This document shows, piece after piece, positions 39,272 through 54,676 of a stretch of 64,000 nucleotides of DNA (its first letter is position 1; each line of letters opens with the position of its first letter). The DNA is from an uncultured Pseudomonadota bacterium (GTDB lineage Bacteria; Pseudomonadota; Alphaproteobacteria; RF32; CAG-239). The notes under the pieces are model-generated. The model saw only the letters and a program-made list of their open reading frames with translations. It was not told where the DNA came from and did no database searches. The stretch lies in contig CACWSG010000001.1 of assembly GCA_902763535.1 (NCBI GenBank), positions 51,957-115,956 of the forward strand, given 5' to 3'. Position numbers and translations under genes: made by a program.

Positions 39272-39407
39272 AAAAATTTATTCATAATATAATTCGTGGC
39301 GAGTTTATATGGGTTAAACTGCTTTGTCAAGAAAGCAAACAAAAATTTTAAAAAAACTCTTGACCTATAAAAATTTTACTTGTATATAGCATAAGTCATC
39401 ATTTGAT

Positions 39408-39482
39408 GGTCCCATCGTCTAATGGTTAGGACATCACCCTTTCACGGTGGTAATATGGGTTCGAATCCCGTTGGGATCACCA
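39408..39482 (+). tRNA. tRNA-Glu (anticodon TTC); integration site of the downstream island
   Basis: GGTCCCATCGTCTAATGGTTAGGACATCACCCTTTCACGGTGGTAATATGGGTTCGAATCCCGTTGGGATCACCA. Anticodon loop CT-TTC-AC. A Rho-independent terminator follows at 39483-39520. Confidence 0.9.
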
Positions 39483-40990
39483 ATCGCAACACCCTCGATT
39501 TTCGGGGGTGTTTTTTTGTTTAAAGAATCTATCAAATCAAAAGGTTTTCTAAGGTTATAAGAGATTTTCCTATCCTTCATTTGCAAGTTCGAAAGTAAAA
39601 GTTTCAAAATCGCTCTTTTGGTCTCTACTTTCGAACTTTTGAAAATTTGGTAGGCATTATTCCCCAATGAAAGTATTGTTGATATTGCGATAGAGAAGTT
39701 TTTATCAGCCTCGGTCAATAAAGCAGACTTTCCCTCAAGTTCGTATTGTTCTTGTTTAACGTCTTCATTCATATCCCGATATTCTTCGGGCGTAATATGA
39801 CCTTCAAGCAGTAATGACCGCAATCGTTTAATCTTGTCTTGGCAATTGTCATATTTCTGACGAATTGCTCGCACTTCCTTATTATGAGCCTCATTTTGTT
39901 TATTGATGATTTTTTCCATATCAGCCTTAAGATATGGCATAATTTCTTGTGGAACGTGCAAATTCTTTAACTCACCTTCTATTGCCTCTAATGCAACATT
40001 TTCATTAATTTGAGGGTTTTCACAATTGCCTTTGAAATGCGAACACTTCAAATAGATATACTCCTTTCCGCTTGGTTTTGTTTTTTTATAGCTGCTGATA
40101 GTACAGCCACATACGCCGCAAGTCATAAGCCCTCTGAAAATAAAAGGCTCTTCAGTCGCCTTAAACGGTATTTTTTCTTCTGGTTTACGACCGTGCATAA
40201 TATCTTGGCAAGTTTGAAACAATGCAGGAGCAATGAACGTTTCATATTGATGCTTAAATACATTCTCCCTGTATATCATTTCCCCTATGTAAAATTTGTT
40301 GTTCAAAATACGATGAACTGCACTGGTATTTAATGGTTTACCGTTGTATTTACTCGTCAAACCCCATTCTTTACATTGTTTTACCATATCTTTTAATGAA
40401 TATAAGCCTGTTGCATAGCGTTCAAACAGCTTTTGTATAATTGGCGCTCGTTCATTATCAACAATAACATCAGCTTTACCATCTGGTTTTCTAACATTAA
40501 AATATCCTAAAGGAGCTCTATACATACAAAAACCGTGTTCGGCTTGATGATTCATACCACTAACAACGTTATCTCGCAAAGAAAGAACATAGTTTTGTGC
40601 CATAACGACATTTAAGCCTAAAATCGTTAAATCACCAGCTTTTGAATTTTTATCAAGCACCAAATTCTCTTGCACTAAGTGAAGTTCTAATTGACCGCTC
40701 TTACGCATTTCATCAATCATTGTATAGTTTTTGAAGTTACGCATTAAGCGGTCAGTTTTCAAACAAACCAGAGCTATACCACCACGTTGTTTCTTACAAA
40801 AAGCCAATATCTCCATAAAGTGCTTGCGTTCACCACGAGTGGAACTTTCAACCAGTTCAGCATCTTTTATAATATTTAAGCCTTTTCGTTCGCAGTATTG
40901 CTTCAACACTTCTTGCTGATTTTGCAACGAGTAGCCCTCTTGCGATTGCATAGTAGTCGATACACGACGTAATAAAACAGCATTTTTCAT
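39434..40990 (-). CDS. Large serine recombinase (integrase)
   Basis: N-terminal resolvase catalytic domain (VLLRRVSTTMQSQEGYSLQNQ…, catalytic Ser in RVST). Recombinase domain, Cys-containing zinc-ribbon region (CGVCGCT…CSHFKGNC) and coiled-coil. The last ~16 codons are antisense tRNA-Glu sequence. Confidence 0.85.
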   Translation of the reverse strand: MKNAVLLRRVSTTMQSQEGYSLQNQQEVLKQYCERKGLNIIKDAELVESSTRGERKHFMEILAFCKKQRGGIALVCLKTDRLMRNFKNYTMIDEMRKSGQLELHLVQENLVLDKNSKAGDLTILGLNVVMAQNYVLSLRDNVVSGMNHQAEHGFCMYRAPLGYFNVRKPDGKADVIVDNERAPIIQKLFERYATGLYSLKDMVKQCKEWGLTSKYNGKPLNTSAVHRILNNKFYIGEMIYRENVFKHQYETFIAPALFQTCQDIMHGRKPEEKIPFKATEEPFIFRGLMTCGVCGCTISSYKKTKPSGKEYIYLKCSHFKGNCENPQINENVALEAIEGELKNLHVPQEIMPYLKADMEKIINKQNEAHNKEVRAIRQKYDNCQDKIKRLRSLLLEGHITPEEYRDMNEDVKQEQYELEGKSALLTEADKNFSIAISTILSLGNNAYQIFKSSKVETKRAILKLLLSNLQMKDRKISYNLRKPFDLIDSLNKKTPPKIEGVAIGDPNGIRTHITTVKG

Positions 40991-41353
40991 TACTAATTAT
41001 CCTTATTATTAAAAGTATCATATCATACAATTTTAGACAAAAACAAGCAAATTATTTAAGACTAAACATTTTTAATAATGATTAGTTTTCTAATAAAAAT
41101 CTTACCAAAAACCCTTAGTTACAAATAATTTCCCAACCAAAAACCTCTTTTACATAATTTCAATACAAGCCAATTGGTGGTTTGTCAGCAAAATGCCTGT
41201 AAGCATTTTTGTCCAAACAATGATAAATGAAAAAGTTGGAAATTGTAAAATCGTGGTATCCGAATGAAACATTGTCTGATGATGATGCTTCAAGAATATA
41301 TGAACGATTATTGCAACTTTTTCTACTTTTTTACAATGAGGACAATCTGACTA

Positions 41354-42184
41354 ATGAAAGAGAGGTTACTAATGAGTCAGAAAAAAAATAAAATTTATAA
41401 AGAAGCTGAAAATCAATTGAATGAAATGCAAAAGGCATTCATCGAATTTGATAAAAGCTATATTCTTCCCAGAAATCACTTGAATTCAGCCCTCATTGGT
41501 TGTTATCAAGCTTCAACGGAATGGGAGGATAAGTTCATAGAAGAATACTGTGAACAAAACAACATCAAATATATGAAGAAGAAACGCTACAAAAATATAG
41601 TGATGCTAGCTATGAATGTTAGCGATGACTGCGATGAAAGGACAAAAGCTCGTGTTAGAACTTATGTTCGTATCTTAAAAAAATTTAAGCAGCTAAATTA
41701 TGATGTTGAAACAGCAAAAGAGCAACTTGAAGAATTCGGTACTGACTATTTTGCTAATCCAAGAAAAAAGAAGGAAAAATCGGAAGAAACTTCAAAGCCG
41801 CAACAGCTTGAGTTTGATTTCGGAACTTCTTCAAAAAATACTTCGAATGAAGAAGACGATGATGATAGCGAAGCTGATGCAGAGGAAATAAGCGATGATG
41901 ATTCCGAAGAAGATAAAGACGAATGCGATTTTGCAGATGAAGATGATGATGAAAACTATGAAGGAAAAAATCGCTTTCGTGATTATCACATTCCAGCTTC
42001 TGTAAAACAAGACAAACAATCTTCTAAAACTTTTTCAGAAGAACTTATTGACCTTTGTAACAAGTATGACTTTGAGGATGAAAACTTTGTCCTTTGGATA
42101 TGTGAGGATAAAGTCCGAATGAGTACTGATAAAAAACTCATTAATCGCTTGGAAAAACAAAATTATGAGTTCGAAGACTTATAG
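41354..42184 (+). CDS. Hypothetical protein with poly-acidic low-complexity region
   Basis: 276 aa with a 60-aa D/E-rich segment (EEDDDDSEADAEEISDDDSEEDKDECDFADEDDDE). Confidence 0.45.
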   Translation: MKERLLMSQKKNKIYKEAENQLNEMQKAFIEFDKSYILPRNHLNSALIGCYQASTEWEDKFIEEYCEQNNIKYMKKKRYKNIVMLAMNVSDDCDERTKARVRTYVRILKKFKQLNYDVETAKEQLEEFGTDYFANPRKKKEKSEETSKPQQLEFDFGTSSKNTSNEEDDDDSEADAEEISDDDSEEDKDECDFADEDDDENYEGKNRFRDYHIPASVKQDKQSSKTFSEELIDLCNKYDFEDENFVLWICEDKVRMSTDKKLINRLEKQNYEFEDL

Positions 42185-42300
42185 TTTATCTTTTGATAAG
42201 GGGGTACAGCAGTATCCCCTTATTTGCAAAACGTTGTTCAACAACGTTTTTACATCACCCCAAAAACTGCACAAATGTATACAACCATATTTAGTCATTA

Positions 42301-43065
42301 ATGCAGTTTATATTAAGGACAACTACTATGACTAACTTCGCAGATAAATTCGAACATAACGCAGTATTACAGTTAAGGAAATTAAATAGAGCTATTGATT
42401 TATATTGCAAGGATATCTTTAGAAAAAATAAACTAATAAGATATGTAAGAAGCGATAATGGATACGGTATGATGCAGCCTATGGCTTTATATAACTTTTC
42501 AGAAATAGCATTTACTCACCTAGAGCCAATTATTGGTGTTGAAAATATTTCAATGTTTACTATAGCCGTTGATACTTTCAATTTTGGGAAAGACAATTGG
42601 GATTTCAATTATCCATTATTTCGTAAAGAAATCAAAAAAATACTAAAAGGTTATGACTACATTGCTAATGTGGCTTTAGATGAATTTCCAAGAGGACGTT
42701 ACTTTGATGAAGGGATATTAATGACACCGCATATACACGGCATATTTTTCAGACCGTTAACTCGTTGGGAAAAAGGTAAAATATCCATAAAAATAAAAAA
42801 ACATTTTCCAGAATATCGAATAAGACCTTTTGTTGTCAGAGAAAAGTTTGATTTAAAATCTGCAATACATTATTCTTTCAAGGCATTATATGGCGGTAAA
42901 ACCACTTATTCTGGTACGTGCGGAAAAAATATTGAAACACCATATAGGAACCTCTTTATAAATTTTTTGCACCTTAAAGCCCTCAAAATATACGATTGTG
43001 CTTTTGCTGGTGGTAAAGGCATTGAAGTGTTAAATAATATTATCAGCGATATTAAAACTAACTAA
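42301..43065 (+). CDS. HUH-superfamily replication initiator (Rep)-like protein
   Basis: HUH motif TPHIHGIFF and downstream Tyr motif IHYSFKALYGGK (YxxK). 254 aa. Confidence 0.5.
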   Translation: MQFILRTTTMTNFADKFEHNAVLQLRKLNRAIDLYCKDIFRKNKLIRYVRSDNGYGMMQPMALYNFSEIAFTHLEPIIGVENISMFTIAVDTFNFGKDNWDFNYPLFRKEIKKILKGYDYIANVALDEFPRGRYFDEGILMTPHIHGIFFRPLTRWEKGKISIKIKKHFPEYRIRPFVVREKFDLKSAIHYSFKALYGGKTTYSGTCGKNIETPYRNLFINFLHLKALKIYDCAFAGGKGIEVLNNIISDIKTN

Positions 43066-43612
43066 CACAACTTAAATAATTATAAACAGTCCTTCGTGAA
43101 ACATTAAATTGTTTGGCGATGGTGGTTATAGGGGTACGATTATTAACCAAGGCTTTTATTTCTTCGGCTTGTTCATTGGTTAGTTTACGTTGCCCACCTT
43201 TATATTTACCTTTGAGTTTAGCCAAAGCAATTCCCTCACGTTGACGCTCCAAGATTAAGTTGCGCTCAAGCTCTGCTACAGCTCCCAACATCGTCATCAT
43301 CATTTTTTGATACGGATCTTGTTTATCGGGGGCAAATATCAAATTTTCTTTATGAAATACAACTTTAGCTCCTTTATTGGTTATTTCTTCGACCAAGTTC
43401 AGCAAATCATTTGTGTTGCGTGCTAATCTATCCATCGAGTGGACATTAACCACATCACCGGCACGAATATTAAGTAACATAGCTTGAAGTTCTGGGCGGT
43501 TAGTGTTTTTACCACTGATTTTTTCGACATATTCCCTATCGCAAGCAACATTTAACAGTTGGCGCTCGGTATTCTGGTCGGTTGTGGAAACTCTCTTGTA
43601 ATTAAACAACAT
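43058..43612 (-). CDS. Small serine recombinase (resolvase/invertase family) with C-terminal HTH
   Basis: MLFNYKRVSTTDQNTERQ… (catalytic Ser). DRLARNTNDLLNLVEEITNKGAKVVF. C-terminal HTH IAKQFNVSRRTVYNYL. 184 aa. Confidence 0.85.
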   Translation of the reverse strand: MLFNYKRVSTTDQNTERQLLNVACDREYVEKISGKNTNRPELQAMLLNIRAGDVVNVHSMDRLARNTNDLLNLVEEITNKGAKVVFHKENLIFAPDKQDPYQKMMMTMLGAVAELERNLILERQREGIALAKLKGKYKGGQRKLTNEQAEEIKALVNNRTPITTIAKQFNVSRRTVYNYLSCVS

Positions 43613-43731
43613 TTTAAGCTCCTATATGTGAAATTTACATTTATAACTTTGATTTACAGGTGTGTAATTAATGCGGTTTTCGACTTTGTTTACACACTTT
43701 TAAGGCTGCGCAATCACGGTATACTTTATTT

Positions 43732-44253
43732 TTACACCGCCTCAGCCTTGACAACTATCGTGTCCTCAACTGTCAGGTCATAAATCCTTGGCATATTGCT
43801 CGAACGTAGAAATCGCAAACCGTCAGAATCATTTAAATAAATTCTGTCTGTGGTTATTCGGTCAATCACGCTCCAATGGTCGTGTAGACCTTGTATGCCT
43901 ATAATCACGGCTGTATTCGGCTGTTTTGTTAGTGTCGATATTTTTTTGATGGCTGTTGTCGTGCGAGTTTTATCGTTGAATGGCCTATAATGCGTTAACC
44001 TGATATTGTCCAATTGTGATTGAATAATACCAAGATAATCCTCAACTTGTTCAACTTCTGAGCCTTCTTTATGGACTGCGTTTAATTTACGGTGTTTATA
44101 TAAGTATGCAATTATTTCTTGAAACCAAAATTTTACGTATTTCTTTTTAAAATTCTCCAAACCTTCTGTCGATAACAATGTCGCATTAATTGAGCTATAC
44201 ACACCACAGAGATTGTCGAGATTGCCTTGCGAAAAGTAAATATTCTTCATCAA
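43732..44253 (-). CDS. Stand-alone C39-like (papain-fold, clan CA) peptidase-domain protein
   Basis: Q-x7-CG (QGNLDNLCGVYSSINA), His motif GLHDHWSVI and downstream Asp. Paralogous to 56398..56982. Confidence 0.5.
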   Translation of the reverse strand: MMKNIYFSQGNLDNLCGVYSSINATLLSTEGLENFKKKYVKFWFQEIIAYLYKHRKLNAVHKEGSEVEQVEDYLGIIQSQLDNIRLTHYRPFNDKTRTTTAIKKISTLTKQPNTAVIIGIQGLHDHWSVIDRITTDRIYLNDSDGLRFLRSSNMPRIYDLTVEDTIVVKAEAV

Positions 44254-44573
44254 TATTCATCTCCTCTCATTATGGTTAGCACTCTGTTGGTAACGCTCTC
44301 ATCGGATATGTCGGGACTGAGGCATAAGTAGTCTAGGTCGTAGTAATCAATCTTCCAGAAGTATGTTGCCCCTTTGAAGTCTATAGCCCCGAAGTCGTGT
44401 TCTTGATTAGGATCATTATTTGCAGTGAATTTATCAAAAGTGCGAACTCGGTTTAACAGCTCAGCACGGTCATTGTCGTTTAACTCGCAAACACCAACTG
44501 TCAACATAACTTTGCCACCAGTGAATGTCTTGCGAAGTTTGTCGTTCAATAGTCGTATTTTACCAACACTCAT
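44250..44573 (-). CDS. Small hypothetical protein with candidate double-glycine leader
   Basis: 107 aa, N-terminus MSVGKIRLLNDKLRKTFTGG-KVM…. The Gly-Gly sits at residues 19-20 with hydrophobics at -4, -12 and -15. Translationally coupled (ATGA overlap) to the C39-like gene. Confidence 0.4.
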   Translation of the reverse strand: MSVGKIRLLNDKLRKTFTGGKVMLTVGVCELNDNDRAELLNRVRTFDKFTANNDPNQEHDFGAIDFKGATYFWKIDYYDLDYLCLSPDISDESVTNRVLTIMRGDEY

Positions 44574-44894
44574 TTTTTACTCCTTTAAAATAAAAAAAGA
44601 GCCAAGGTATTTAACCAAGGCTCTCAAAATTTGCGGATTAAGGCAGATGGTATGTCCCACAAAACCTATTTCGACATTAGAATTGTATGACATACCACCT
44701 CACTTTCACACCGACAAAATTAAACCTTATCTGCTCTGGTGAAAAAGCAGATTATATAAGGCTTATGTGTCAGTGATTTTGTATTCGAAATAAACGAACC
44801 GATTCGTTTTTGAATACAACTAATTATAACACAAAAATAAAGGAAAATCAAGTACTTAATTGACAAAACATCATTTTTTGACGCATTTTTTAGT

Positions 44895-45551
44895 TTATTT
44901 CAAATGGTTTAGTACCTCTTTTTTATGTTTATTGAAATAACTGATTATTTCTTGAGCAAATTGTCTGAATTGTTTTATATCTTCATCGCTTATTGTATCG
45001 GAATCATTTATTGAAACAGTATGTTGACTATCATTATAAGTGTCACAATCACAATTTTTAACAGCTATTAATTTCGATGTTTCTTGTATAATCGCAAAAT
45101 CGTCATTGTCCTGATTATTGATTGAGCTAAAAACACCTAGCTGTTTGTTTTGCCAATACATCACAACAGAAAAATTAATTTCAAAATGTTTATTTATTTC
45201 ATAAGATGCTGTAAATAATGAATAATCGCTTATATCATTTGCTAAATCAAAACAGTTATCTAAATCTGTAATATAAATTATATTATGATTTTCAATATCT
45301 AAGTCATTTACCAGATCTTCCCAAACGGCTTCCCATATTTGACGACACATAATCCAGCCGTCCGTTTTAAACTTCTGCAAAAACACCTTAGCTTGATAAA
45401 AGTTTTGATATTCATCAAACGAAATTTTGCTAGGTACTTCGGTATTGTCGAACATAGCTAAAGCTTTTATCGTATTATCTTTGCAAACTTTTTTTAAATT
45501 TTCAGGTATTTGTATCATTTTTAACACTCCCAATATAAAATTTTGTTCCAC
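44895..45551 (-). CDS. Hypothetical protein (218 aa), acidic
   Basis: Long ORF, overlaps the upstream gene by 31 nt (operon). No recognisable motif. Confidence 0.4.
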   Translation of the reverse strand: MEQNFILGVLKMIQIPENLKKVCKDNTIKALAMFDNTEVPSKISFDEYQNFYQAKVFLQKFKTDGWIMCRQIWEAVWEDLVNDLDIENHNIIYITDLDNCFDLANDISDYSLFTASYEINKHFEINFSVVMYWQNKQLGVFSSINNQDNDDFAIIQETSKLIAVKNCDCDTYNDSQHTVSINDSDTISDEDIKQFRQFAQEIISYFNKHKKEVLNHLK

Positions 45552-46306
45552 AATGAAGACCTGTAACGTTTCATATCTTCATCTTCAACCAGTCCGTCTA
45601 GGTTCTGTTCCCATAATTGCATAACATCACACCAGAGTATATTTTTCCAAGATTCTTTTTTTTCTTTTTTTGCATCAATATCTTTTTGAATATTTTTAAT
45701 AGTGATAACGACGAAGGTCAGCTCTTTACCTTTGGCAATTTTCTTCATCTGTTCCTCATAAACGCTTAATTCATTACCATCAATTACGGCATCAAATTTT
45801 ACTTCAATACATAAAGCTCCGCTATTCCATATAATTGTATTATCAATACGTTTTCGCCTTTTTTTCTTATCTTTGACATTTTTAGTAAGAACTTCGCAAG
45901 CACAATAATAACCATCTTTGGGAAGTTCTTTATTTTGATTTAATAATTTAAAAATAGCCTGTAAAAATGCTTTGCAGCTTTGTTGATTTTCGAGTAAAAA
46001 ATTTGATAATGCTTTTGTAAATTGTGGTTCTTTCAAATTTAAATAGCGATATAAAGGCTTATAACGGAATGAATGATGCGCTGTATAATTACCTAAAAAT
46101 GGAAAATCACTTAATAGATCTTCATATGTTTGATAACCGATTTTAGCATACTGCTTTGCTATATAATCGTGATAGTCTTGCAAAAACGATTTGACTTTTA
46201 AGTGATCCCCATAAAATGCTTGAATATATGGCAGACTTTGATGATATACATCATTACAATATACTTCGGATAATTGTGAAAAATATTTTTCTTTACTCAT
46301 TATCAT
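45521..46306 (-). CDS. Hypothetical protein with PD-(D/E)xK-like nuclease motif
   Basis: …IDNTIIWNSGALCIEVKFD… (D…E-V-K), embedded in predicted beta strands. 261 aa. Confidence 0.4.
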   Translation of the reverse strand: MIMSKEKYFSQLSEVYCNDVYHQSLPYIQAFYGDHLKVKSFLQDYHDYIAKQYAKIGYQTYEDLLSDFPFLGNYTAHHSFRYKPLYRYLNLKEPQFTKALSNFLLENQQSCKAFLQAIFKLLNQNKELPKDGYYCACEVLTKNVKDKKKRRKRIDNTIIWNSGALCIEVKFDAVIDGNELSVYEEQMKKIAKGKELTFVVITIKNIQKDIDAKKEKKESWKNILWCDVMQLWEQNLDGLVEDEDMKRYRSSLWNKILYWEC

Positions 46307-46330
46307 ACCAATTCTCCGAATATATCAATT

Positions 46331-46600
46331 AAAAAACCACCTTTGAATAAGGTGGTCGGAGAGTTCGTAAATCATATTAGGTAAAATGATCCTTTTAGCC
46401 TTTAGAAAGTAGATTCTTGGACATACGCTAAAAGCTCCCCGACCATTGTCGGGGATAGCTGTTGCTTCAAAAATATTGCAACTGACGATGTTATCCGACA
46501 CCGTACCTAATAAGAGCTTACGACGGCTCCGCACCTTATATAAGGTACTAAACATAGGTTGCCCTATGCCTAATAAAAACATTAAGCCTACATAGGTTAA
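46331..46600. repeat. Copy B of the ~250-bp intergenic repeat family, located inside the island
   Basis: See copy A at 14835-15100. Hairpin ccacctttgaataaggtgg, then ggagagtt and the gctccccgaccattgtcgggg core. Confidence 0.75.
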
Positions 46601-46697
46601 ATTACAATTAAAATCACTTTATTTTCAGAAAATTATTTTGCTTTTTTGGTAAAGCATAATATTATGAAAAAAAATACTAACAGTAGGATTAAAGATA

Positions 46698-47360
46698 ATG
46701 GATTTAGACAAACACGCAACCCAATATTTGGATATTATGAATAAACAGGCTCAGGAATTATCTTGTTATGAACAGCAATTTGATAATGCTGATTCTCATA
46801 TGCTGCAACACGTAATTGACTATTCGAAAATGGCTATCAAATCACTTTTTTTATTAAATGGAACGGCAGCCATTTCTGTATTTACTTTATTTACATCTTC
46901 ATCACTAAATATTCAAAAAGTTTTTCAGCCATTACTTGATGCGGTTACAATATTTTCTTGGGGTGCTGTTATTTCAGTTATATGTATTTTTTTAGCCTAT
47001 GCGGCGCAAAAATTTTATCAAGATGAGTGTGCTTGTATAGGAAGAGAGAAAATATTATATATCAAATTAAGACAATCTGAAGAAAAACGGATATTTTTTG
47101 CAAAGGAAAAAGTATTGAATAAAGAAATACCAGTTGAAAAAGATATAGAAGCCTTAGAAAATGAGGCAGAGGATACTAAAAAACAGAGGGATTTAGAAGA
47201 AAAAAAGGAAAAAAGATATGGCAAACTTGGAGATATTTTTACAGGTATCGCTATAATAGGAGTCATCTGTTCATTGTGTTTATTTATATTCGGCGTCTAT
47301 AAAGTAAAAAACGAATTTGTTCAATATACTAAGGACACAATTACTGAACAAAATAAGTAA
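46698..47360 (+). CDS. Membrane protein with two TM helices and charged coiled-coil tail
   Basis: TMs AISVFTLFTSS and GAVISVICIFLAYAA, a K/E-rich helical segment, and a C-terminal TM IAIIGVICSLCLFIFGV. Confidence 0.45.
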   Translation: MDLDKHATQYLDIMNKQAQELSCYEQQFDNADSHMLQHVIDYSKMAIKSLFLLNGTAAISVFTLFTSSSLNIQKVFQPLLDAVTIFSWGAVISVICIFLAYAAQKFYQDECACIGREKILYIKLRQSEEKRIFFAKEKVLNKEIPVEKDIEALENEAEDTKKQRDLEEKKEKRYGKLGDIFTGIAIIGVICSLCLFIFGVYKVKNEFVQYTKDTITEQNK

Positions 47361-47409
47361 AAGTAATTTTGTATAAGTGATTACCAATTTCGAAGAAATC
47401 ATCTGTATA

Positions 47410-49899
47410 TTACGATATTTCATTCTTATTTTGATTTTTTGCTTCTTTTTCTATGGCTTTTTCTACTTTTTCAAATCCACTACAACCATCTTTAATAGCT
47501 TCATTCCAGTTAAAATATGCAACCCCTATATTTACCTTATTCCAAATATCTGTTAGATAATCTCTGAAAAGAATAGATTTACGGTATCTATCTTCAATTT
47601 TAAATGACTGAATTAGAGGAAATATTTCATCTCGAGTTATTGTATCCAAAATAGGCGTATCAATCGAAACCGCATCTAAATATGAAAACTCACCTATCCA
47701 CTTATATAAATGATATACACCTATACTTGTAACTCTAAATCCTTCTGGAATATCTCCACATAACACACCTGTTTTTCTTTCAAATTCTACCCTTCCAACA
47801 GATTCTATCAATTTTTTATTAGTAAGTCTTCTAATAGAATATTCAATTTGAGGAATTGTGTAACCATATTTTTGCATTTCGGTTATAATGTCTATAAATT
47901 TAACAAAACTATCGGTATCTTTTGTTGAATATTTACTTTCGAGATATGCGACAATTAGCGATGACAAAAAATGCTCTTTAATATCAGGAGATGAAATCTC
48001 AAATAAATTCATTGCTAGTGAAGTATCTTCATTAAAATAAGAGTAATCTCCTAAAATAGCTGCTTTTGAAAATTCGTGCAAAGGAATTAAATAATCATCT
48101 TCTTTACTAAAGGATATGATTTTATCACTATCTACATTAGTATTACTTATAAATTTTGCAATAAAATCCATTACTAATCGAACATTTCCACCTGTAATGT
48201 TTGATAATATTTCTCTTATTTCTTTATTATTTTTTATAGAAAATAAAAGGGATTTAATAAATACGACTATATCGCTCAAATCTAAACTAATATTTTCTAA
48301 AGGATGTATCTTTGTATTGCCTTGTGCTATTTTTAACGCAAATTCAAGACGTTTAGCCACAACTGTTTCTATCCTTGGTGGAAGTATAGTAAATACACGT
48401 TGAGTATATCCAGACAAAGAGCGCCCTCTCATTTTTGATTGATAAAAGGTTTCTGGGCGTAACGCAATAAAAGTCATCGCTTTCCATCCAGAAGCAAGTT
48501 CTTGAGCTATAACAAAAGCTTCATCCTGTATGTCTGTAGTCCTTTGATCCGCATTATCAATAGTAATGATAATTTGTTTTTTATGAGCTTTGGCTATATG
48601 CTCTATTGCTTTACACAAATGGCTAGATTTATCTGAGGTTAATTTATCAAGATATGAGATAAGTTTTTCATTATATAATTTTGGATTCTGCTGCAATAAA
48701 TCTTTATAAATGCCATTTTCAAATCTCTTTATTTCAGAATGATAAATACCTTTTACAAAATTTGAAGAATAAATATCTATTTTGTGATTGTCCAAAAGTT
48801 GCTTTTCTATATCTAGCAATATAAAAGATTTTAAATCATTCGATAAAGTACCACTATCCCCTAAATCAATATATAAATACAGTGATTTTTCAAACTCTTC
48901 TTTAGCATTTAAATATTTTAAACTTTTAAGAAAGCTTGTCTTTCCAACTCCTACATCTCCTATTACTACAATAGGTCTCTTTGATAAAGCCTCAGCGTAT
49001 ATCTTATCAGAGAGAAGACCTTGTTTTTTATTTTTTTGCATTAAGCATTCTATATTCGTATCGCTATCCTGCGGAAACAAGTGAGCATAACGTTTGGATA
49101 AAATATCTTTACTAATAAGGGCATCTTGAGATAAGGCTCCACTTTGGCAATAGCATTCCTGAAAAAATTCTTCTTCAATTTCTGGAGAAGTTATCAAATC
49201 TTGTAGTAATAATTCAGATAAAATTTCTAAACTTTTTTGATTGTCATTTTTATATCTTATATCTCGATAATTTAGAATATATTGAGATAGTTTACTAGGT
49301 AAAAATTTTCTTTCACTTGCTATAAAAAAGTCATATAGATTTCTATCTTTAATTCCGTAAATTGAAAGGTATTGCCATACAAGCTGGAAATTTGTTAATA
49401 AATCATCTTTGTTTCTTATAATAAATGCATCCCCATCAAGAGGAGGAATACCATCTCGTCGTGATGCTAAAAAGGCTATAATTTGGTATGAATTTATAAT
49501 AACTGCAAACTCGACACCTCGTTTAGAACAATAATCAAATACTTGATTAACGGCATCTTTAGCGGCAGAACTTGTTTTTATAATTGATTGTATAGAACAG
49601 ATATATTTCTCTCTTCCGTTTGATGGAAAATCAAATTGTATACTATCTTTTTTAGCTTCAACAATACAACATTTAGGATGTCCTAGTTCATAATCGGTAT
49701 AGTCTCCATTGTGATATTTTTCAGTTTCAATATTTTCTTTATTCCAGCCTAGACAATATACCAAAAAATCATCTATAAACTGAAACCTAGTATCTTCTTC
49801 TGTCCAATTCCAAGAAGCTTTAGTGCTTTCTTCGACTAAGGCTTTTAGGTTCTCTAGACCTATCTTCATATCGTTCACATTACTTATAAAATTTGCCAC
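47410..49899 (-). CDS. Fusion protein: N-terminal HsdR-N/Mrr-like PD-(D/E)xK nuclease domain plus P-loop NTPase (STAND/AAA-like), with a long C-terminal region
   Basis: Nuclease motif …DYTDYELGHPKCCIVEAKK…. Walker A IVVIGDVGVGKTSFLK. Walker B-like QIIITIDNADQ. 829 aa and extremely AT-rich. Directly downstream, on the same strand, of the m5C methyltransferase. Confidence 0.55.
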   Translation of the reverse strand: MANFISNVNDMKIGLENLKALVEESTKASWNWTEEDTRFQFIDDFLVYCLGWNKENIETEKYHNGDYTDYELGHPKCCIVEAKKDSIQFDFPSNGREKYICSIQSIIKTSSAAKDAVNQVFDYCSKRGVEFAVIINSYQIIAFLASRRDGIPPLDGDAFIIRNKDDLLTNFQLVWQYLSIYGIKDRNLYDFFIASERKFLPSKLSQYILNYRDIRYKNDNQKSLEILSELLLQDLITSPEIEEEFFQECYCQSGALSQDALISKDILSKRYAHLFPQDSDTNIECLMQKNKKQGLLSDKIYAEALSKRPIVVIGDVGVGKTSFLKSLKYLNAKEEFEKSLYLYIDLGDSGTLSNDLKSFILLDIEKQLLDNHKIDIYSSNFVKGIYHSEIKRFENGIYKDLLQQNPKLYNEKLISYLDKLTSDKSSHLCKAIEHIAKAHKKQIIITIDNADQRTTDIQDEAFVIAQELASGWKAMTFIALRPETFYQSKMRGRSLSGYTQRVFTILPPRIETVVAKRLEFALKIAQGNTKIHPLENISLDLSDIVVFIKSLLFSIKNNKEIREILSNITGGNVRLVMDFIAKFISNTNVDSDKIISFSKEDDYLIPLHEFSKAAILGDYSYFNEDTSLAMNLFEISSPDIKEHFLSSLIVAYLESKYSTKDTDSFVKFIDIITEMQKYGYTIPQIEYSIRRLTNKKLIESVGRVEFERKTGVLCGDIPEGFRVTSIGVYHLYKWIGEFSYLDAVSIDTPILDTITRDEIFPLIQSFKIEDRYRKSILFRDYLTDIWNKVNIGVAYFNWNEAIKDGCSGFEKVEKAIEKEAKNQNKNEIS

Positions 49900-50056
49900 T
49901 TATTGTCTCCATATAAAACCTAACTGCAAAATATGACATACAAATTAACATAAACATCTAAACAATCAAGAATAAAAACAATTCGCATCATTTTGACGTA
50001 GCTTGGAAATTGGACAGATTAACAATTGCACAAGTACTAAATTTTATACCTGAGTG

Positions 50057-51289
50057 TTACTCTGCAGCCATTTCTAGTTGCAGTCCATTTGTCATTTTTT
50101 CATTTAAACAATCCAACATTTCAATTAAGCAACACCCTATATGATAACTTAAATTAACCGGAACAGCATTACCTATTTGTTTATACTGTGATGACATTGT
50201 TCCTTGAAATTTCCAATTATCAGGAAATGATTGAATTCTTGCATATTCACGAATGGTAAGTGGTCTCGTTTCACTTGGATGACAGCGTTCAGTTTGCTTT
50301 TGAGCTGGTGCGCAAGTCAACGTTAAACTCGGTTCATCCCAAGATAAACGTCTTGCCATACCAGTTTTGCCACCAGATAAATGAAAACTGCCTTTCATAT
50401 ATTCTTTTTGAACATCAATCGGTAAATCTCGCCAATACCCCCCCTCTGGAACCAATGACAATATTTCAGCTTTACGTTTAGGATAGCTTTGACCTTCTGA
50501 TTTAGGACAATCTTTTAACGCAGCTCTTAGTGAAACTGTATAATTTTTCTCTGTTGGAAAGATAAAAGGAATATTCAAATCATTACGAATTGCAATAATT
50601 ATTAATCTTTCTCTTTTTTGCGGCACATCTAAATACTGTGCTCTCAAAACCTTATATTGCACATTATAACCAATTTCTTTCAAGGCATTAACCATTGTTT
50701 TAAGGGTTCTGCCATTATCGTGTTTCAACAATCCTTTAACATTTTCACCAACAGCAATTTTGGGCATTGTTTCTTTAACGCAGCGAGCAAATTCAAAAAA
50801 CAATGTTCCTCTGGTATCTTCAAATCCCATACTTTTACCAGCATAACTGAAAGCTTGACAAGGAAATCCTGCTTGAACTATATCGACTTTACCTTTCCAA
50901 GGAGAAAAATCTACATTATGGACATCTTCGTGAATTATGTTAGTTCCTTTAGGAAAATTATGTTGCAAAGTTGCGACACAATCTTTATCTATTTCGTTTA
51001 GTAAGATGTGTCGAATACCTGCATTTTCAAACCCAAGAGCTGTTCCTCCAGCTCCTGCAAATAGTTCTATCGCTGTATAAGGAGACTTAAGTTTGGATTC
51101 CAACACTTTGAACTCTTCATCGGATTTATTATTTAATTTATCCAATAAGGCAAAAACTTCGTCATCATTGAACATACGATGATTTTTATCAGAACGTTCT
51201 GCCTTTATTAATCCTTTTTTTTCCCAACGTCTAATTGTATCAATAGATAAATTAAGTTTTTTACTTACTTCGTGAATAGATAACCACAT
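50057..51289 (-). CDS. DNA (cytosine-5)-methyltransferase with N-terminal MerR-like HTH
   Basis: Motif I ELFAGAGGTALGF, IV GFPCQAFSYAGK, VI ENVKGLL, VIII QKRERLIIIA, X QIGNAVPV. N-terminus MWLSIHEVSKKLNLSIDTIRRWEKKGLI is an HTH. Confidence 0.9.
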   Translation of the reverse strand: MWLSIHEVSKKLNLSIDTIRRWEKKGLIKAERSDKNHRMFNDDEVFALLDKLNNKSDEEFKVLESKLKSPYTAIELFAGAGGTALGFENAGIRHILLNEIDKDCVATLQHNFPKGTNIIHEDVHNVDFSPWKGKVDIVQAGFPCQAFSYAGKSMGFEDTRGTLFFEFARCVKETMPKIAVGENVKGLLKHDNGRTLKTMVNALKEIGYNVQYKVLRAQYLDVPQKRERLIIIAIRNDLNIPFIFPTEKNYTVSLRAALKDCPKSEGQSYPKRKAEILSLVPEGGYWRDLPIDVQKEYMKGSFHLSGGKTGMARRLSWDEPSLTLTCAPAQKQTERCHPSETRPLTIREYARIQSFPDNWKFQGTMSSQYKQIGNAVPVNLSYHIGCCLIEMLDCLNEKMTNGLQLEMAAE

Positions 51290-51376
51290 TATTAATCTCC
51301 TTAATTAACTGAATACAATATAAAATAACCCCTGCATATATGCAAGGGTTATTTTTAAGATATTAAATCAATATAA

Positions 51377-52087
51377 TTAATTAACTGATTCTTCTATTTC
51401 TTGAGCTAAACTGTCTATTGCATCTTCAATAATAGCTGTACCATCAATCTCATTCGCAACTTCGGCAATATTATTAATCAATGCTTCATAAAAGTCTTCA
51501 TCACCTGTCAATCTATACCAGAATTCTTTACCTGCATAGACGGGATTAGACTTATTTATGGTTTTATACATTGTTGATAAATCTTCATTACTACCATAAA
51601 AGACCCCAACAACACAGTCAACATCAGGATTGAAATCTCTTAAACCATTTGTTCGTGCTAAATTTCGGATTGCTTGGAAATGGTTTAATATTGTTGTAAT
51701 ATCATCCTTATTTATAGTATTTGGACCAGCCTTAATCTGGCAATATTTGTGTCTTCCATCAACTTGATCTGTGAATTCAATATCAATACCAGATGTTGTT
51801 GAGGCAAAACCATTTAAAACGTCTTTGCAAAAAGATTGCATCTGAGTACCAAAAATAGTATTTATCGATGTTCCTAAAACTCGAGGATAAATCAAAGCCT
51901 TTGCAATGTTTTTACTATCAGAATTGCCAAAAGCAAAATTTGCTAAATATTTCTGTAAAAAAGGATTAGGATTGAATTCCTTTAAGTGTTTAGCTTCTTC
52001 AGTTTTCTTTTTATGATTCTCAACAATATTGTCTCTAAAAAATTGTTTGGCTTTTTGCAGTATAAGTTGTTTTTCCTCTGGGGTCAT
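51377..52087 (-). CDS. Putative type II restriction endonuclease, cognate of the adjacent m5C MTase
   Basis: 236 aa from internal Met with GGAGA RBS. Candidate PD…(D/E)xK: GIDIEFTDQVDGRHKYCQIK. Position and orientation are typical of an R-M pair. Confidence 0.45.
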   Translation of the reverse strand: MTPEEKQLILQKAKQFFRDNIVENHKKKTEEAKHLKEFNPNPFLQKYLANFAFGNSDSKNIAKALIYPRVLGTSINTIFGTQMQSFCKDVLNGFASTTSGIDIEFTDQVDGRHKYCQIKAGPNTINKDDITTILNHFQAIRNLARTNGLRDFNPDVDCVVGVFYGSNEDLSTMYKTINKSNPVYAGKEFWYRLTGDEDFYEALINNIAEVANEIDGTAIIEDAIDSLAQEIEESVN

Positions 52088-52246
52088 TCTTATTCTCCGT
52101 ATAACAAACACGAGTAACATTTTATCTTAATTACCCAGAAAAGCAAGTTATAATTGGCTTTATTCTACATAATTAAACAGCAAAAAACCAAATTAATCTC
52201 TATATAATTGTAAAATGTATTTAACAAAATCCATAAATAAGAAATA

Positions 52247-52927
52247 TTATTTGTAGCTATTCAAGTCTATTTTATATTTTGAACAAAAATCGTAGATATT
52301 TTTAACTGTATAACACTTAATTCCTGTTTTTAAAGCAAATTCTTTTGCTCTATCATCATAACCATTCTTTACAAAATATGTTAAAATATAAGGATGCACA
52401 ATTGTTTTGTTTTCATCTGAAATATTCTTTATTACCCCTCCAACAAATTGTTTCATAGAGTTAAGACCTATACATTTTTTATCAAAACACTTGACTTGTG
52501 AATAAACGTCTATAATACCTAATATATCATCCTCCAATTTTCCTTTAATATCAATTGTATTAGCATCTTCTTGAGAATTATCAGCAACTTCTTCTACTTT
52601 AATTTTTTCACTTTTATTTAAAATATCACAACAGAGTTTTGCATATGATTTTGGACTTAATAGGTTTAATGCCTTACAAAATTCCATATATTCTTTTTTT
52701 CCTTTTATAACTACAAAATTTTCTTTATCATCAAACTCTACTATTTCATCGTCCTGTTCTCTAAAGAAATTTTCTAATATTCCTAAATGGTTATTAATCT
52801 CATCTTCTGAAATACTATCATCTATTTCTTGAACTACATTTGTAATTATCTTAGCAAAAGATCCAGATGTAGGATTACTACAAGCCATTTTATATATTTC
52901 GTTAAATGAAGGAAATTTGTTAACCAT
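52247..52927 (-). CDS. Hypothetical protein (226 aa) co-transcribed with the ParB-like gene
   Basis: Start codon abuts the upstream gene's stop (52927/52928). No recognisable domain. Several Cys pairs. Confidence 0.4.
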   Translation of the reverse strand: MVNKFPSFNEIYKMACSNPTSGSFAKIITNVVQEIDDSISEDEINNHLGILENFFREQDDEIVEFDDKENFVVIKGKKEYMEFCKALNLLSPKSYAKLCCDILNKSEKIKVEEVADNSQEDANTIDIKGKLEDDILGIIDVYSQVKCFDKKCIGLNSMKQFVGGVIKNISDENKTIVHPYILTYFVKNGYDDRAKEFALKTGIKCYTVKNIYDFCSKYKIDLNSYK

Positions 52928-54064
52928 TTAATTATCCTTAAGTTTTTTAATTGCCATTATCTTTTTTTGCACAAAATCCACCATATCTTCTACCAATTTA
53001 AAATCCTCATCACTAAACGATTGGATCGTTATAAAAGGCATAATATCAAACTCTGTTTTTAAATTTTCAATAGCCATTTTCCAATTATTATTGGGTTTTG
53101 AATTTTTAATTTCAAACTCTATCTCTTCTAATGTTTTATCTGTAGATAAAAAACTTTGATAAAACTTTGTATTTTCTTCTCTTAATAAATTAGATAATTT
53201 TCTCATACTTTTAGCTTCTGATAATTTTGGTGAATTATTTTCTCCTGTTGTTTCATTATACTTTCCTTTCATCCAAGAAATAAGCAATTCCAAATTATCT
53301 TTATTTAAACACTCAAAAGGATCATCTTGTATATCTAACCATTTTCTAATATTAGGACTTTTCATTGCTTCTTCAAAATAACTGTAATTATCAGGCGTAA
53401 ACGAAACATCTGTATCACCCTCAAGACTATTTGCCATTTCAAATAATTTCAGTGATCTTTTAGATTGCTTAACGGTTGCTTTTGTTATTCCCAACATATT
53501 ACTTATCTCTTCGTCAGAAATTTTATCTTTTGTTAATTTATTAATTAAAAGTGCTTTCTGATATGCTCCCCAAGATTTAACTCCTGATATATGCCTTATT
53601 CCAGGAATCAGCATATTATACGAAGCTTCTTTATCTTTATTGTCAACTAACAAAACATCTATGTTTTCCAAATCATTTTTCTCTTCTTTTGATAATGTAA
53701 TTTTTCCAACATTTTCCAAGTTTATTATAGATTTCAAAGCCGCAATTCTTCTATTACCTTCTATAACTACATATTTATTTTCAAATCCATTTATAGGTCT
53801 TACAACTACTTTATCTATAGGAAGAAAACCTACCTCAAGTATATTATCTCTTAAAGAAGATACTTCAAAAGATGGTAACAACATACGTTTTAACGTTTCT
53901 TCTTGAACTTTATCTTCTATTATTCTGTTTTCAGGAACTACGTAATTTTCCATATTAATCTCTAAAAAACGAGGATTATTAGGATCTAAATATAGATCAT
54001 TTAAGGCAATTGTTTTTTGTTTGAATTCATCTCTAGAAAAAGTTGTCATAATTACGCCTTCCAT
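52928..54064 (-). CDS. ParB/Srx-fold N-terminal domain protein with central HTH
   Basis: ParB box VVIEGNRRIAALKSI. HTH ISNMLGITKATVKQSKRSL. Long helical C-terminal region. 378 aa. No parA partner nearby. Confidence 0.55.
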   Translation of the reverse strand: MEGVIMTTFSRDEFKQKTIALNDLYLDPNNPRFLEINMENYVVPENRIIEDKVQEETLKRMLLPSFEVSSLRDNILEVGFLPIDKVVVRPINGFENKYVVIEGNRRIAALKSIINLENVGKITLSKEEKNDLENIDVLLVDNKDKEASYNMLIPGIRHISGVKSWGAYQKALLINKLTKDKISDEEISNMLGITKATVKQSKRSLKLFEMANSLEGDTDVSFTPDNYSYFEEAMKSPNIRKWLDIQDDPFECLNKDNLELLISWMKGKYNETTGENNSPKLSEAKSMRKLSNLLREENTKFYQSFLSTDKTLEEIEFEIKNSKPNNNWKMAIENLKTEFDIMPFITIQSFSDEDFKLVEDMVDFVQKKIMAIKKLKDN

Positions 54065-54446
54065 ATTTATTATTCAATACTGAGTAGAATAAAGCTCTTA
54101 CTGTACAAAAGCAAGCAAAATATATAAAAAATAAGAATAGCTTCAAATGAACATCAAAACTAAAAGAAACATTCAAAACGCAGGAAGTCGAAGGCAAATT
54201 GTTTCAAAAATGCAACTATTATCTAAAAATTTTGAAACTATTATTTACCTTGGATTTTTTTACCATACAATGCGGTTGTGCTGTTTTATGCATATTTTAT
54301 CATTAAAATGCTCGATTCGCATTGTATGAATAGAATATCGACAGTAAATAACATTTTTCATCGTAAATTATCTTTATGTAAGTTGTAACCATCTGATTTT
54401 ACACATTAAAATATGCTGCAAAAAAACATTTTCAGGCGCTTTTTAC

Positions 54447-54475
54447 TTGCTTATACTAGGAAAATATGGTATAAT
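54447..54475 (+). promoter_or_regulatory. Near-consensus sigma70 promoter (TTGCTT-17-TATAAT) driving a ~150-nt leader or small RNA
   Basis: -35 at 54447-54452, spacer of 17, -10 TATAAT at 54470-54475. Confidence 0.55.
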
Positions 54476-54595
54476 AAAATTGTATTTAGGCGGTAACCGT
54501 AGGTTAATTAAAAATGCTTAAATATAGGTTTGATGATAAAATCCTTCCGTGTGAACTAAGGGTCTAGCCAAACGTTAAGAACTCAACCCACATTC

Positions 54596-54676
54596 ACCTC
54601 AACAGGTGAAATGTGGATTTTGTTTTTTAACGAGCATCTGCATTTCACCAAAGATATGAAAGGAAACTGAAATGCA
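54596..54676 (+). promoter_or_regulatory. Leader with intrinsic terminator plus alternative, mutually exclusive pairings that sequester the start codon of the 54672 gene
   Basis: A ccacattcacc / A' ggtgaaatgtgg + T7 (terminator). B ctgcatttcacc can pair with A' or with B' tgaaatgcag. B' contains the ATG at 54672. Confidence 0.45.

Follow-up and report, generated by a model that had tools for sequence, protein, structure and literature searches.

Nucleases of the PD-(D/E)xK fold under the control of a nucleoside triphosphatase (NTPase), and fusions of ORC/Cdc6-type ATPases with a restriction-endonuclease (REase) fold, are already established in conflict systems (10.1101/2025.07.10.664194; PMC10853773; PMC12839542). 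Here we describe a gene in a 64,000-nucleotide stretch of DNA (the window) from contig CACWSG010000001.1 of an uncultured alphaproteobacterium, whose 829-amino-acid (aa) product joins an N-terminal nuclease domain of the HsdR type to an AAA+ ATPase, a winged helix and a helical tail. With a probability of about 55%, we consider the gene to encode a self-contained, single-polypeptide, ATP-gated DNA endonuclease that is carried as mobile-element cargo and serves in defence or exclusion against phage or plasmid DNA. Every part of the protein is a known fold; what appears to be new is the combination of an HsdR-type nuclease, an ATPase intermediate between ORC/Cdc6 and STAND, a winged helix and a helical tail in a solitary gene, for which Pfam, NCBIfam and PADLOC 2.0.0 hold no model. 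The literature searched yielded no paper on the family, only general treatments of ORC/Cdc6-REase proteins, and a prior description elsewhere is possible.

The described systems that lie closest each share a part of this layout. In its N-terminal nuclease the protein is like HsdR (Pfam HSDR_N / HSDR_N_2), the nuclease of which is group 48 of the PD-(D/E)xK classification (Steczkiewicz et al. 2012, PMC3424549), and like the type IIG enzymes BpuSI and DrdV. Unlike in HsdR, the partner NTPase is an ORC/Cdc6-STAND AAA+ switch, not an SF2 translocase, and there are no HsdM/HsdS partners. McrBC and other NTP-dependent type IV or ATP-dependent restriction enzymes likewise couple an AAA+ NTPase to a PD-(D/E)xK nuclease and cut DNA without a cognate methyltransferase, but McrB is a GTP-specific AAA+ protein with a separate McrC nuclease and an N-terminal reader of modified DNA, none of which is found here; Pfam, NCBIfam and PADLOC gave no McrB or McrC match, and there is no partner gene. 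Hna, Upx, Nhi, Hachiman, AbpAB, PD-T4-1/4/8 and Olokun likewise hold a PD-(D/E)xK nuclease under NTPase control, usually as oligomers on DNA (surveyed in bioRxiv 10.1101/2025.07.10.664194). They use SF1/SF2 helicases or other P-loops, however, and no PADLOC match to them was obtained at E<=0.01.

The comparators within the ORC/Cdc6 clade are the Orc1/Cdc6 initiators, BrxC of BREX, DUF499/MtsA of MANTIS/Gao_RL, and SspC. Unlike the conflict ATPases of this clade, the present protein has its nuclease fused in cis, is encoded by a solitary gene without PglZ, PglX or methyltransferase/helicase-nuclease partners, and carries a STAND-type DNxDQ Walker B and an RP motif; the sequence similarity is at the level of the Pfam clan only. 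BREX differs further in its operon, since no PglZ, PglX/BrxX, BrxA or BrxB accompanies our gene, and in the size of BrxC (~1200 aa versus 829 aa), to which the likeness is structural only. The CR-ATPase/REase effectors (Aravind laboratory; cited in PMC10853773) combine an ORC/Cdc6-clade P-loop and an REase fold in one conflict protein. As far as they are described there, the present protein is set apart from them by the N-terminal position and HsdR-N type of its REase and by the winged helix and tail that follow the ATPase.

The gene was found as an uninterrupted 829-codon open reading frame (ORF) on the minus strand, in both the ORF list and the translation. Its parts, with aa positions counted from the GTG start, are as follows.

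47410..49899, minus strand: whole gene, nuclease-ATPase-winged-helix protein of 829 aa and 95.6 kDa; the stop codon is at 47410-47412
49900..50056, minus strand: intergenic spacer upstream of the gene, 157 bp, with a GGAG ribosome-binding site read from the sequence
49360..49899, minus strand: N-terminal helix and HsdR-type PD-(D/E)xK nuclease domain, aa 1-180
49000..49359, minus strand: helical linker, aa 181-300, from the secondary structure of the AlphaFold2 (AF2) model
48385..48999, minus strand: AAA+ alpha/beta base, aa 301-505
48052..48384, minus strand: AAA+ lid, a helical bundle, aa 506-616, with invariant 'PPR', TGGNxR and, at its end, HEF.K
47725..48051, minus strand: winged helix-turn-helix domain, aa 617-725
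47413..47724, minus strand: helical extension at the C-terminus, aa 726-829, in which Y-H, D-T-P and R are invariant

Two numberings are used below, that of the 829-aa form and that of an 819-aa form starting at M11 (offset 10). The GTG start codon is preceded by GGAG 7 nt upstream, and the longer form is credible from the sequence, because the N-terminal extension 'NVxDM' is also common to the closest homologues. A protein identical to the 829-aa product is on record in public data (P0001). An ORF of 829 codons in DNA of ~29% GC is improbable by chance; given its length in AT-rich DNA and hundreds of full-length homologues, it is real and far more than a chance frame. The spacer upstream leaves space enough for a putative promoter of the gene's own, which may lie there, and scans for promoters and terminators around the gene gave counts equal to the shuffled expectation. 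No credible transmembrane segment was found (the top 19-aa Kyte-Doolittle window scores 1.74 and contains two Asp), and the protein is predicted to be soluble. In this it is unlike KAP P-loop NTPases, whose profile (Pfam KAP_NTPase) gave weak matches in 8/36 relatives. The three motifs quoted by an earlier first-pass annotation, made from the sequence alone, are all present in the translation: DYTDYELGHPKCCIVEAKK at aa 66-84 (window 49648-49704), GDVGVGKTSFLK at aa 314-325 (window 48925-48960) and IIITIDNADQ at aa 443-452 (window 48544-48573).

The AF2 model has a mean pLDDT (predicted local distance difference test) of 78.2. Its fold assignment, a check that the first-pass annotation had named, gave an HsdR-type nuclease, an ORC/Cdc6-like AAA+ module and a winged helix. 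In the structure comparison the N-terminal domain matched HsdR, BpuSI and DrdV, and its alpha-beta-beta-beta-alpha-beta restriction-endonuclease core can be superposed on HsdR nuclease domains. The candidate catalytic residues are E34, D69, E81, K83 and Q139, or, in the 819 numbering, E24 (the helix-1 Glu), D59, E71-x-K73 and Q129. In an alignment of 191 distinct full-length relatives, these five residues are kept in 191/191 sequences and N126 (819 numbering) in 190/191. At the level of profiles the likeness is weaker: the isolated N-terminal 265 aa scored 17.0 bits against HSDR_N_2 (PF13588), below the gathering cut-off of 25 (E 0.0064), and only two of 36 relatives reached this profile at E<0.01. 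Within the HsdR-N type it represents a divergent branch. The restriction-endonuclease-fold nuclease read from the motifs alone is borne out by the fold match and the invariant E, D, ExK and Q.

The linker that follows contains a near-invariant CYC motif within the conserved segment CYCxSGALS...RYAxLF (residues 239-265, 819 numbering; window 49000-49180, aa ~249-300 in the 829 numbering), which is among the most conserved stretches of the family. C239 is kept in 98% and C241 in 88% of relatives (819 numbering), and conservation reaches 0.71 over residues 241-260, although pLDDT falls below 50 at 244-290 in the AF2 model. This segment may act in conformational switching, as an interface or in autoinhibition.

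The middle of the protein is a P-loop NTPase, as had been proposed, with an intact Walker A, GDVGVGKT (K320; K310 in the 819 numbering), and an acidic Walker B, IDNADQ, of the DNxDQ pattern (D448 and D451; D438 and D441). A helical insert of ~90 aa separates strands 2 and 3 of the base, and an 'RP' motif, R481-P482 (P472 in the 819 numbering), follows strand 4. The arginine of TGGNxR, R574 (R564), lies in a lid helix and is sensor-2-like by position and analogy. The domains run from AAA+ base through helical lid to C-terminal winged helix, as in ORC/Cdc6-like proteins. Fold matches of the ATPase were to Cdc6/ORC, BrxC, STAND proteins, TnsC/MuB and RdrA, with Cdc6/ORC and BrxC the closest. In the Pfam scan of the 829-aa protein AAA_22 was just over threshold (29.7 bits against a cut-off of 27), with NACHT, AAA_16 and ATPase_2 below threshold; among the 36 relatives scanned, AAA_22 matched in 36 (best 4.9e-9), NACHT in 26, AAA_16 in 25, nSTAND in a few and ORC-CDC6-like, weakly, in just 4. 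The ATPase sits, as judged from these profiles, between ORC/Cdc6 and STAND. In its DNxDQ Walker B and in the 'RP' that follows strand 4 the protein recalls NACHT/STAND motifs (DGxDE, TSRP) and DnaA box VII, and the lid TGGNxR may be the counterpart of the sensor-2 GDxR of Cdc6/ORC; these likenesses fit the mixed Pfam picture of AAA_22, NACHT and ORC-CDC6-like.

The ~350 C-terminal residues, which had been taken for a motif-less region that might serve as a sensor, are instead the AAA+ lid with its TGGNxR, a winged helix and the helical tail, and are as conserved as the rest of the protein. The winged helix matched the folds of PadR/MarR/RPA32C and carries a conserved putative recognition helix, 'RRxTNKKLIE'. 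In the tail the AF2 model places long helices at 758-779 and 788-818, for which the structure comparison gave no separate fold match; Y719, P739 and R761 (819 numbering), after the winged helix and in the tail, are 100% conserved. The extension may be a dimerisation or regulatory element.

No known family covers the protein as a whole. NCBIfam gave no match, PADLOC 2.0.0 (5027 models) none at E<=0.01, and PADLOC scans of Shewanella and Klebsiella homologues gave noise-level matches at most. Searches of the PDB by phmmer and by profile hmmsearch returned P-loop-level noise only (Rab GTPases, HslU), with no solved relative. Among phage orthologous groups, the protein matches phrog_14719, a PHROG without known function (1.8e-74).

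The family is large and steady in its architecture. A word-indexed search found 675 relatives, the best 120 of which are nearly all 810-840 aa long, with 42-47% identity and 96-100% query coverage. An exhaustive search of representatives (50%-identity clusters) gave 905 at E<=1e-30, a number that rises to 1878 at E<=1e-10 and to 2750 at E<=1e-3, and full-length homologues keep a steady length of ~800-830 aa. In data with one genome per species, the family occurs in 179 of 185,579 species and in at least 9 phyla, a sparse and patchy spread over Pseudomonadota, Nitrospirota, Acidobacteriota, Actinomycetota, Bacteroidota, Planctomycetota, Omnitrophota, Atribacterota and Bacillota. About 100 alignment columns are invariant across phyla. 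They include the ATPase residues K310, D438, D441 and R564 as well as P472, and positions at the lid end (H598-E-F600), after the winged helix (Y719-H) and in the tail (D-T-P739, R761), all in the 819 numbering. From one end of the chain to the other conservation varies little (0.55-0.64 per domain), and no region is hypervariable. Source databases name the relatives generically as hypothetical protein, AAA family ATPase or P-loop NTPase fold protein. Homologues include WP_311750981 of Proteus and WP_038910325 of Dickeya.

A distant branch at ~24% identity is also full-length (hhalign probability 100, E 2e-40) and keeps all catalytic motifs. It is widespread on conjugative Klebsiella and Enterobacter plasmids, where insertion sequence (IS) elements flank the gene, and is carried by other plasmids too. 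One of its members is the following.

L085 6944-9448: WP_047062017, on the Klebsiella pneumoniae IncF plasmid NZ_CP138703.1

The surroundings of relatives were compared over 80 genomic loci, with ORFs within up to +/-10 kb clustered. No conserved neighbour was found in the 80 loci; the top non-self cluster, which is integrase-like, occurs in 7/80 and has no fixed position. A small partner ORF (25-200 aa) or an upstream element (330 nt) was matched across loci only between congeneric genomes. The functional unit is a single gene, because no neighbour, small ORF or upstream element recurs. Pfam and PADLOC scans of 228 neighbours showed, mixed with housekeeping genes, integrases (9), resolvases, transposases, MobA, Mrr (3), components of type I/II/III restriction-modification systems, RhuM/PDC-S05 and mads.

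Relatives lie on 27 plasmids, including conjugative Klebsiella IncF plasmids, and a Shewanella plasmid copy lies 500 bp from another type II restriction-modification system. Seven IMG/VR contigs carry relatives. In one of them (IMG/VR UViG 2791355254_000001; L092 9971-12421), the gene is inverted between the tape-measure and major-tail genes of a prophage whose siphovirus-type structural module looks complete, with portal, terminase, protease and major head genes nearby; its position looks like that of accessory, moron-like cargo. PHROGs and IMG/VR thus hold prophage copies, although a tblastn search of the INPHARED phage genomes gave no match to the family.

Given these observations, the evidence supports a product that needs a working nuclease and a working NTPase and that binds DNA, encoded by an autonomous, horizontally mobile gene. 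An NTPase-gated nuclease, as the first-pass annotation had it, is a fair description. What the data display directly is the folds of the domains, two catalytic centres that are intact and invariant, an organisation as one gene, and settings in mobile elements and defence islands; cleavage of DNA, its gating by ATP through oligomerisation, the role in defence and the kind of trigger are inferred. Defence or exclusion is indicated by the occurrence on islands and plasmids and as a prophage moron, by the restriction-modification and Mrr neighbours, and by the sparse, patchy spread. In the mechanism that we propose, the ORC/Cdc6-like AAA+ module (base, lid and winged helix), with its STAND-like Walker B and RP, would act as a nucleotide switch. 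In the ATP state the protein would bind DNA, using both its conserved winged helix and the enlarged insert of helices in its ATPase, and would associate with itself on the DNA. This would juxtapose two or more N-terminal HsdR-type PD-(D/E)xK domains, so that both strands could be cut, because each nuclease domain has one active site. ATP hydrolysis would then reset or disassemble the complex. As no part of the protein is hypervariable and the putative recognition helix is conserved across phyla, a particular sequence or a phage protein is the less likely cue; more probably the protein would respond to something general about DNA that is invading or replicating, be it its ends, its structure, its topology or a modification state that is widespread. 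Possible analogies for such a mechanism are the tetramerisation of Avs proteins, the DNA-bound assemblies of TnsC, MuB and ORC, and the BrxC/MtsA-type ATPases that license DNA enzymes in BREX-related systems.

Several points weigh against this explanation. No homologue has been characterised, and none of the 5027 PADLOC models matched, so that the defence role is drawn from context, in which many neighbours are ordinary housekeeping genes. Immune sensors evolve fast, and conservation as uniform and strong as this (44-47% identity across phyla) is not typical of them. ATPases of the ORC/Cdc6 clade serve transposition and replication too.

One more specific form of the defence explanation is tentative and, in our estimate, rather improbable: an 'origin-recognition-like' immune nuclease, in which an ORC/Cdc6-type loader would have been repurposed to recognise a generic structural feature of foreign DNA that invades or replicates (a melted origin, an end or a replication intermediate, for instance) and would polymerise there and cut through its HsdR-type domain. 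If true, it would mean that a single polypeptide can discriminate self from non-self independently of sequence and modification, and in evolution the family would stand between the ORC/Cdc6 initiators and the immune receptors of the STAND class as an intermediate.

In the window, the gene lies within a low-GC island at ~39400-54600 (GC 26-31% versus 36-43%), which abuts tRNA-Glu(ttc) at 39408-39482 and is integrated at this tRNA gene; a search with a 12-nt seed turned up no direct repeat at its flanks. Besides several ORFs without any family, the island and the immediate surroundings of the gene hold the following.

39434-40990: large serine recombinase
43058-43612: resolvase
44250-44573: DUF3768 protein
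45521-46306: PDDEXK_4 protein
46698-47360, plus strand: 220-aa ORF, convergent with the 829-aa gene and 50 bp from its stop
50057-51289, minus strand: 5-methylcytosine (m5C) methyltransferase with an N-terminal MerR-type helix-turn-helix (HTH) (Pfam DNA_methylase 3e-85)
51377-52120, minus strand: EcoO109I-family type II endonuclease (Pfam RE_EcoO109I 2e-34), just upstream of the methyltransferase

The 220-aa ORF had no match in Pfam, NCBIfam, PADLOC or PHROGs; it was found only in copies of the same island (L001-L003) and is absent beside other family members. The endonuclease and the m5C methyltransferase (50057-52120) are a complete type II restriction-modification pair. Within the 87-bp gap between their genes lies a near-perfect inverted repeat with 15-bp arms, AAAATAACCCTTGCATATATGCAGGGGTTATTTT (51322-51355), which could be a terminator or an operator for the HTH-methyltransferase. 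Directly upstream of the endonuclease gene, the minus strand carries two ORFs (52247-54064), one of which encodes a 378-aa ParB-like protein (phrog_3694 1e-23; weak PRTRC ParB); the other, of 226 aa, had no match in any library. The type II endonuclease belonging to the methyltransferase, like the invariant positions in which the C-terminal ~350 aa are rich, had been overlooked in the first-pass annotation.

As that annotation stated, the 829-aa gene lies directly downstream of the m5C methyltransferase, on the same strand, with a gap of 157 bp. Elsewhere, m5C methyltransferases were found near the gene in only 2 further loci of the 80 (L050 and L063). In L050 the enzyme is part of an HpaII-type pair. 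In L063 (8121-12319) the methyltransferase is followed by a 248-aa ORF, which shares the strand of the family member and stops 24 bp short of it. By eye only, this ORF shows an EndoIII/HhH-GPD-like motif, ALVAEVMLQRTRAEQV, and its product may be a mismatch-glycosylase companion of the methyltransferase.

Of the alternatives, the one that survives best, though we regard it as unlikely, is a type IV modification-dependent enzyme, in which the winged helix or C-terminal region would read m5C, hydroxymethylcytosine (hmC), N6-methyladenine (m6A) or a phage hypermodification and ATP-driven assembly would license cleavage. A conserved DNA-reading surface without diversification of specificity fits the recognition of a chemical mark, and the stand-alone, methyltransferase-independent organisation is that of type IV enzymes. 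One distant plasmid homologue even bears the label 'Predicted type IV restriction endonuclease', but this annotation is automatic and non-experimental, the name stemming from COG2810/HSDR_N_2. No modified-base reader domain was found in the protein. Moreover, active-looking m5C methyltransferases adjoin the gene in the window, in L050 (the HpaII system) and in L063, and another methyltransferase is present on the Shewanella plasmid; with such neighbours, a nuclease generically dependent on m5C or methylation would be a hazard. The proposal of a methylation-sensing, type IV-like factor therefore fares poorly in its generic m5C-dependent form, given that the adjoining m5C methyltransferases are of different types.

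An abortive-infection sensor of the Avs/NLR-like kind is likewise doubtful. Here the C-terminal half would bind a phage protein and set off STAND oligomerisation, an indiscriminate nuclease and cell death. An N-terminal nuclease effector is found in Avs2-4 as well, the DNADQ Walker B and RP motif are STAND-like, and the relatives show the NACHT (26/36), AAA_16 (25/36) and, in a few cases, nSTAND matches given above. The sensor, however, is missing: no TPR, LRR or WD40 repeat was matched, and the part after the lid consists only of the winged helix and ~100 aa of helices. The protein is half the size of Avs and bacterial NACHT/NLR-like proteins, and its family is uniformly conserved, with none of the hypervariability expected of a receptor that senses proteins. 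No Avs or NLR model in PADLOC matched, and the best folds are Cdc6/ORC and BrxC, down to the sensor-2-like lid arginine. The likeness to Avs drawn in the first-pass annotation does not hold up against these results.

We consider it quite improbable that the protein serves the mobile elements themselves, as a DNA-loading ATPase of the ORC/TnsC/MuB kind with a domain that nicks or cuts, used for replication initiation, choice of integration site or exclusion of competitors. Its fold similarity to TnsC, MuB, Cdc6 and ORC and its consistent link to islands, plasmids and prophages would suit such a function, and the ORC/Cdc6 clade supplies transposase ATPase subunits (PMC10853773), which also counts for it. 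Yet no element gene, whether for a transposase, a replicase or anything else, accompanies it consistently, and its carriers, among them a serine-recombinase island, IncF plasmids and a siphophage-like prophage, are of unrelated kinds. The prophage copy is an opposite-strand insertion in the tail module, a moron position rather than that of a core function. A transposon (TnsA/TnsC-like) reading was rejected, as the loci hold no transposase partner.

PrrC-type guards embedded in restriction-modification loci provide a precedent for a further possibility, which we hold to be very improbable: that the gene is a third component of the adjacent EcoO109I-like system, acting as a guard upon its inhibition or as a sensor of methylation state. 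The gene has the same orientation as the methyltransferase, 157 bp downstream of it, and relatives stand beside restriction-modification systems in L050 and on the Shewanella plasmid and beside an orphan methyltransferase in L063. These partner systems are, however, mutually unrelated (EcoO109I-type, HpaII-type, an N-methyltransferase system and type I), ~90% of the 80 loci lack any restriction-modification neighbour, no cluster of neighbours occurs in more than 7/80, and the protein is uniformly conserved whatever its context. Functional coupling to the m5C methyltransferase was rejected as well, on the lack of a recurrent neighbour, the different types of the other methyltransferases and the enzyme's own EcoO109I-like REase. 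The methyltransferase is a coincidental defence-island neighbour. Of the two options that the first-pass annotation had left side by side, a link to m5C was thus not upheld over the 80 loci, and an independent effector proved the better half.

A decayed type I HsdR remnant or functionless pseudogene, suggested by the likeness of the N-terminal domain to HsdR nucleases and named in advance as a possible refutation, is vanishingly unlikely and on sequence conservation refuted, given the intact 829-codon ORF in AT-rich DNA, the 905 clusters of full-length homologues of constant length with ~100 columns invariant across phyla, and the absence of SF2 (DEAD/ResIII) helicase motifs or matches in the protein and of HsdM or HsdS nearby in the window.

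If confirmed experimentally, the ATP-gated endonuclease would be a defence system in one gene, compact (~95 kDa) and of an architecture absent from PADLOC 2.0.0, Pfam and NCBIfam. The gene also warns against taking adjacency to a methyltransferase as functional linkage. Its family reaches into at least nine phyla, into prophages and, through the distant branch, onto clinically relevant conjugative Klebsiella plasmids. Being uniformly conserved, the family lends itself well to structural and biochemical study. The kind of thing is not conceptually surprising, but the protein is a strong candidate for a new defence system of a single gene, and its structure usefully connects the initiator-type AAA+ switches with the STAND-type ones. 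An ATPase that mixes features of ORC/Cdc6 (lid arginine, winged helix) with those of STAND (DNxDQ, RP) could show how a switch of the AAA+ initiator type was recruited to immunity, and the family could show how the licensing of a nuclease on DNA can do without methyltransferase, helicase motor and variable sensor alike.

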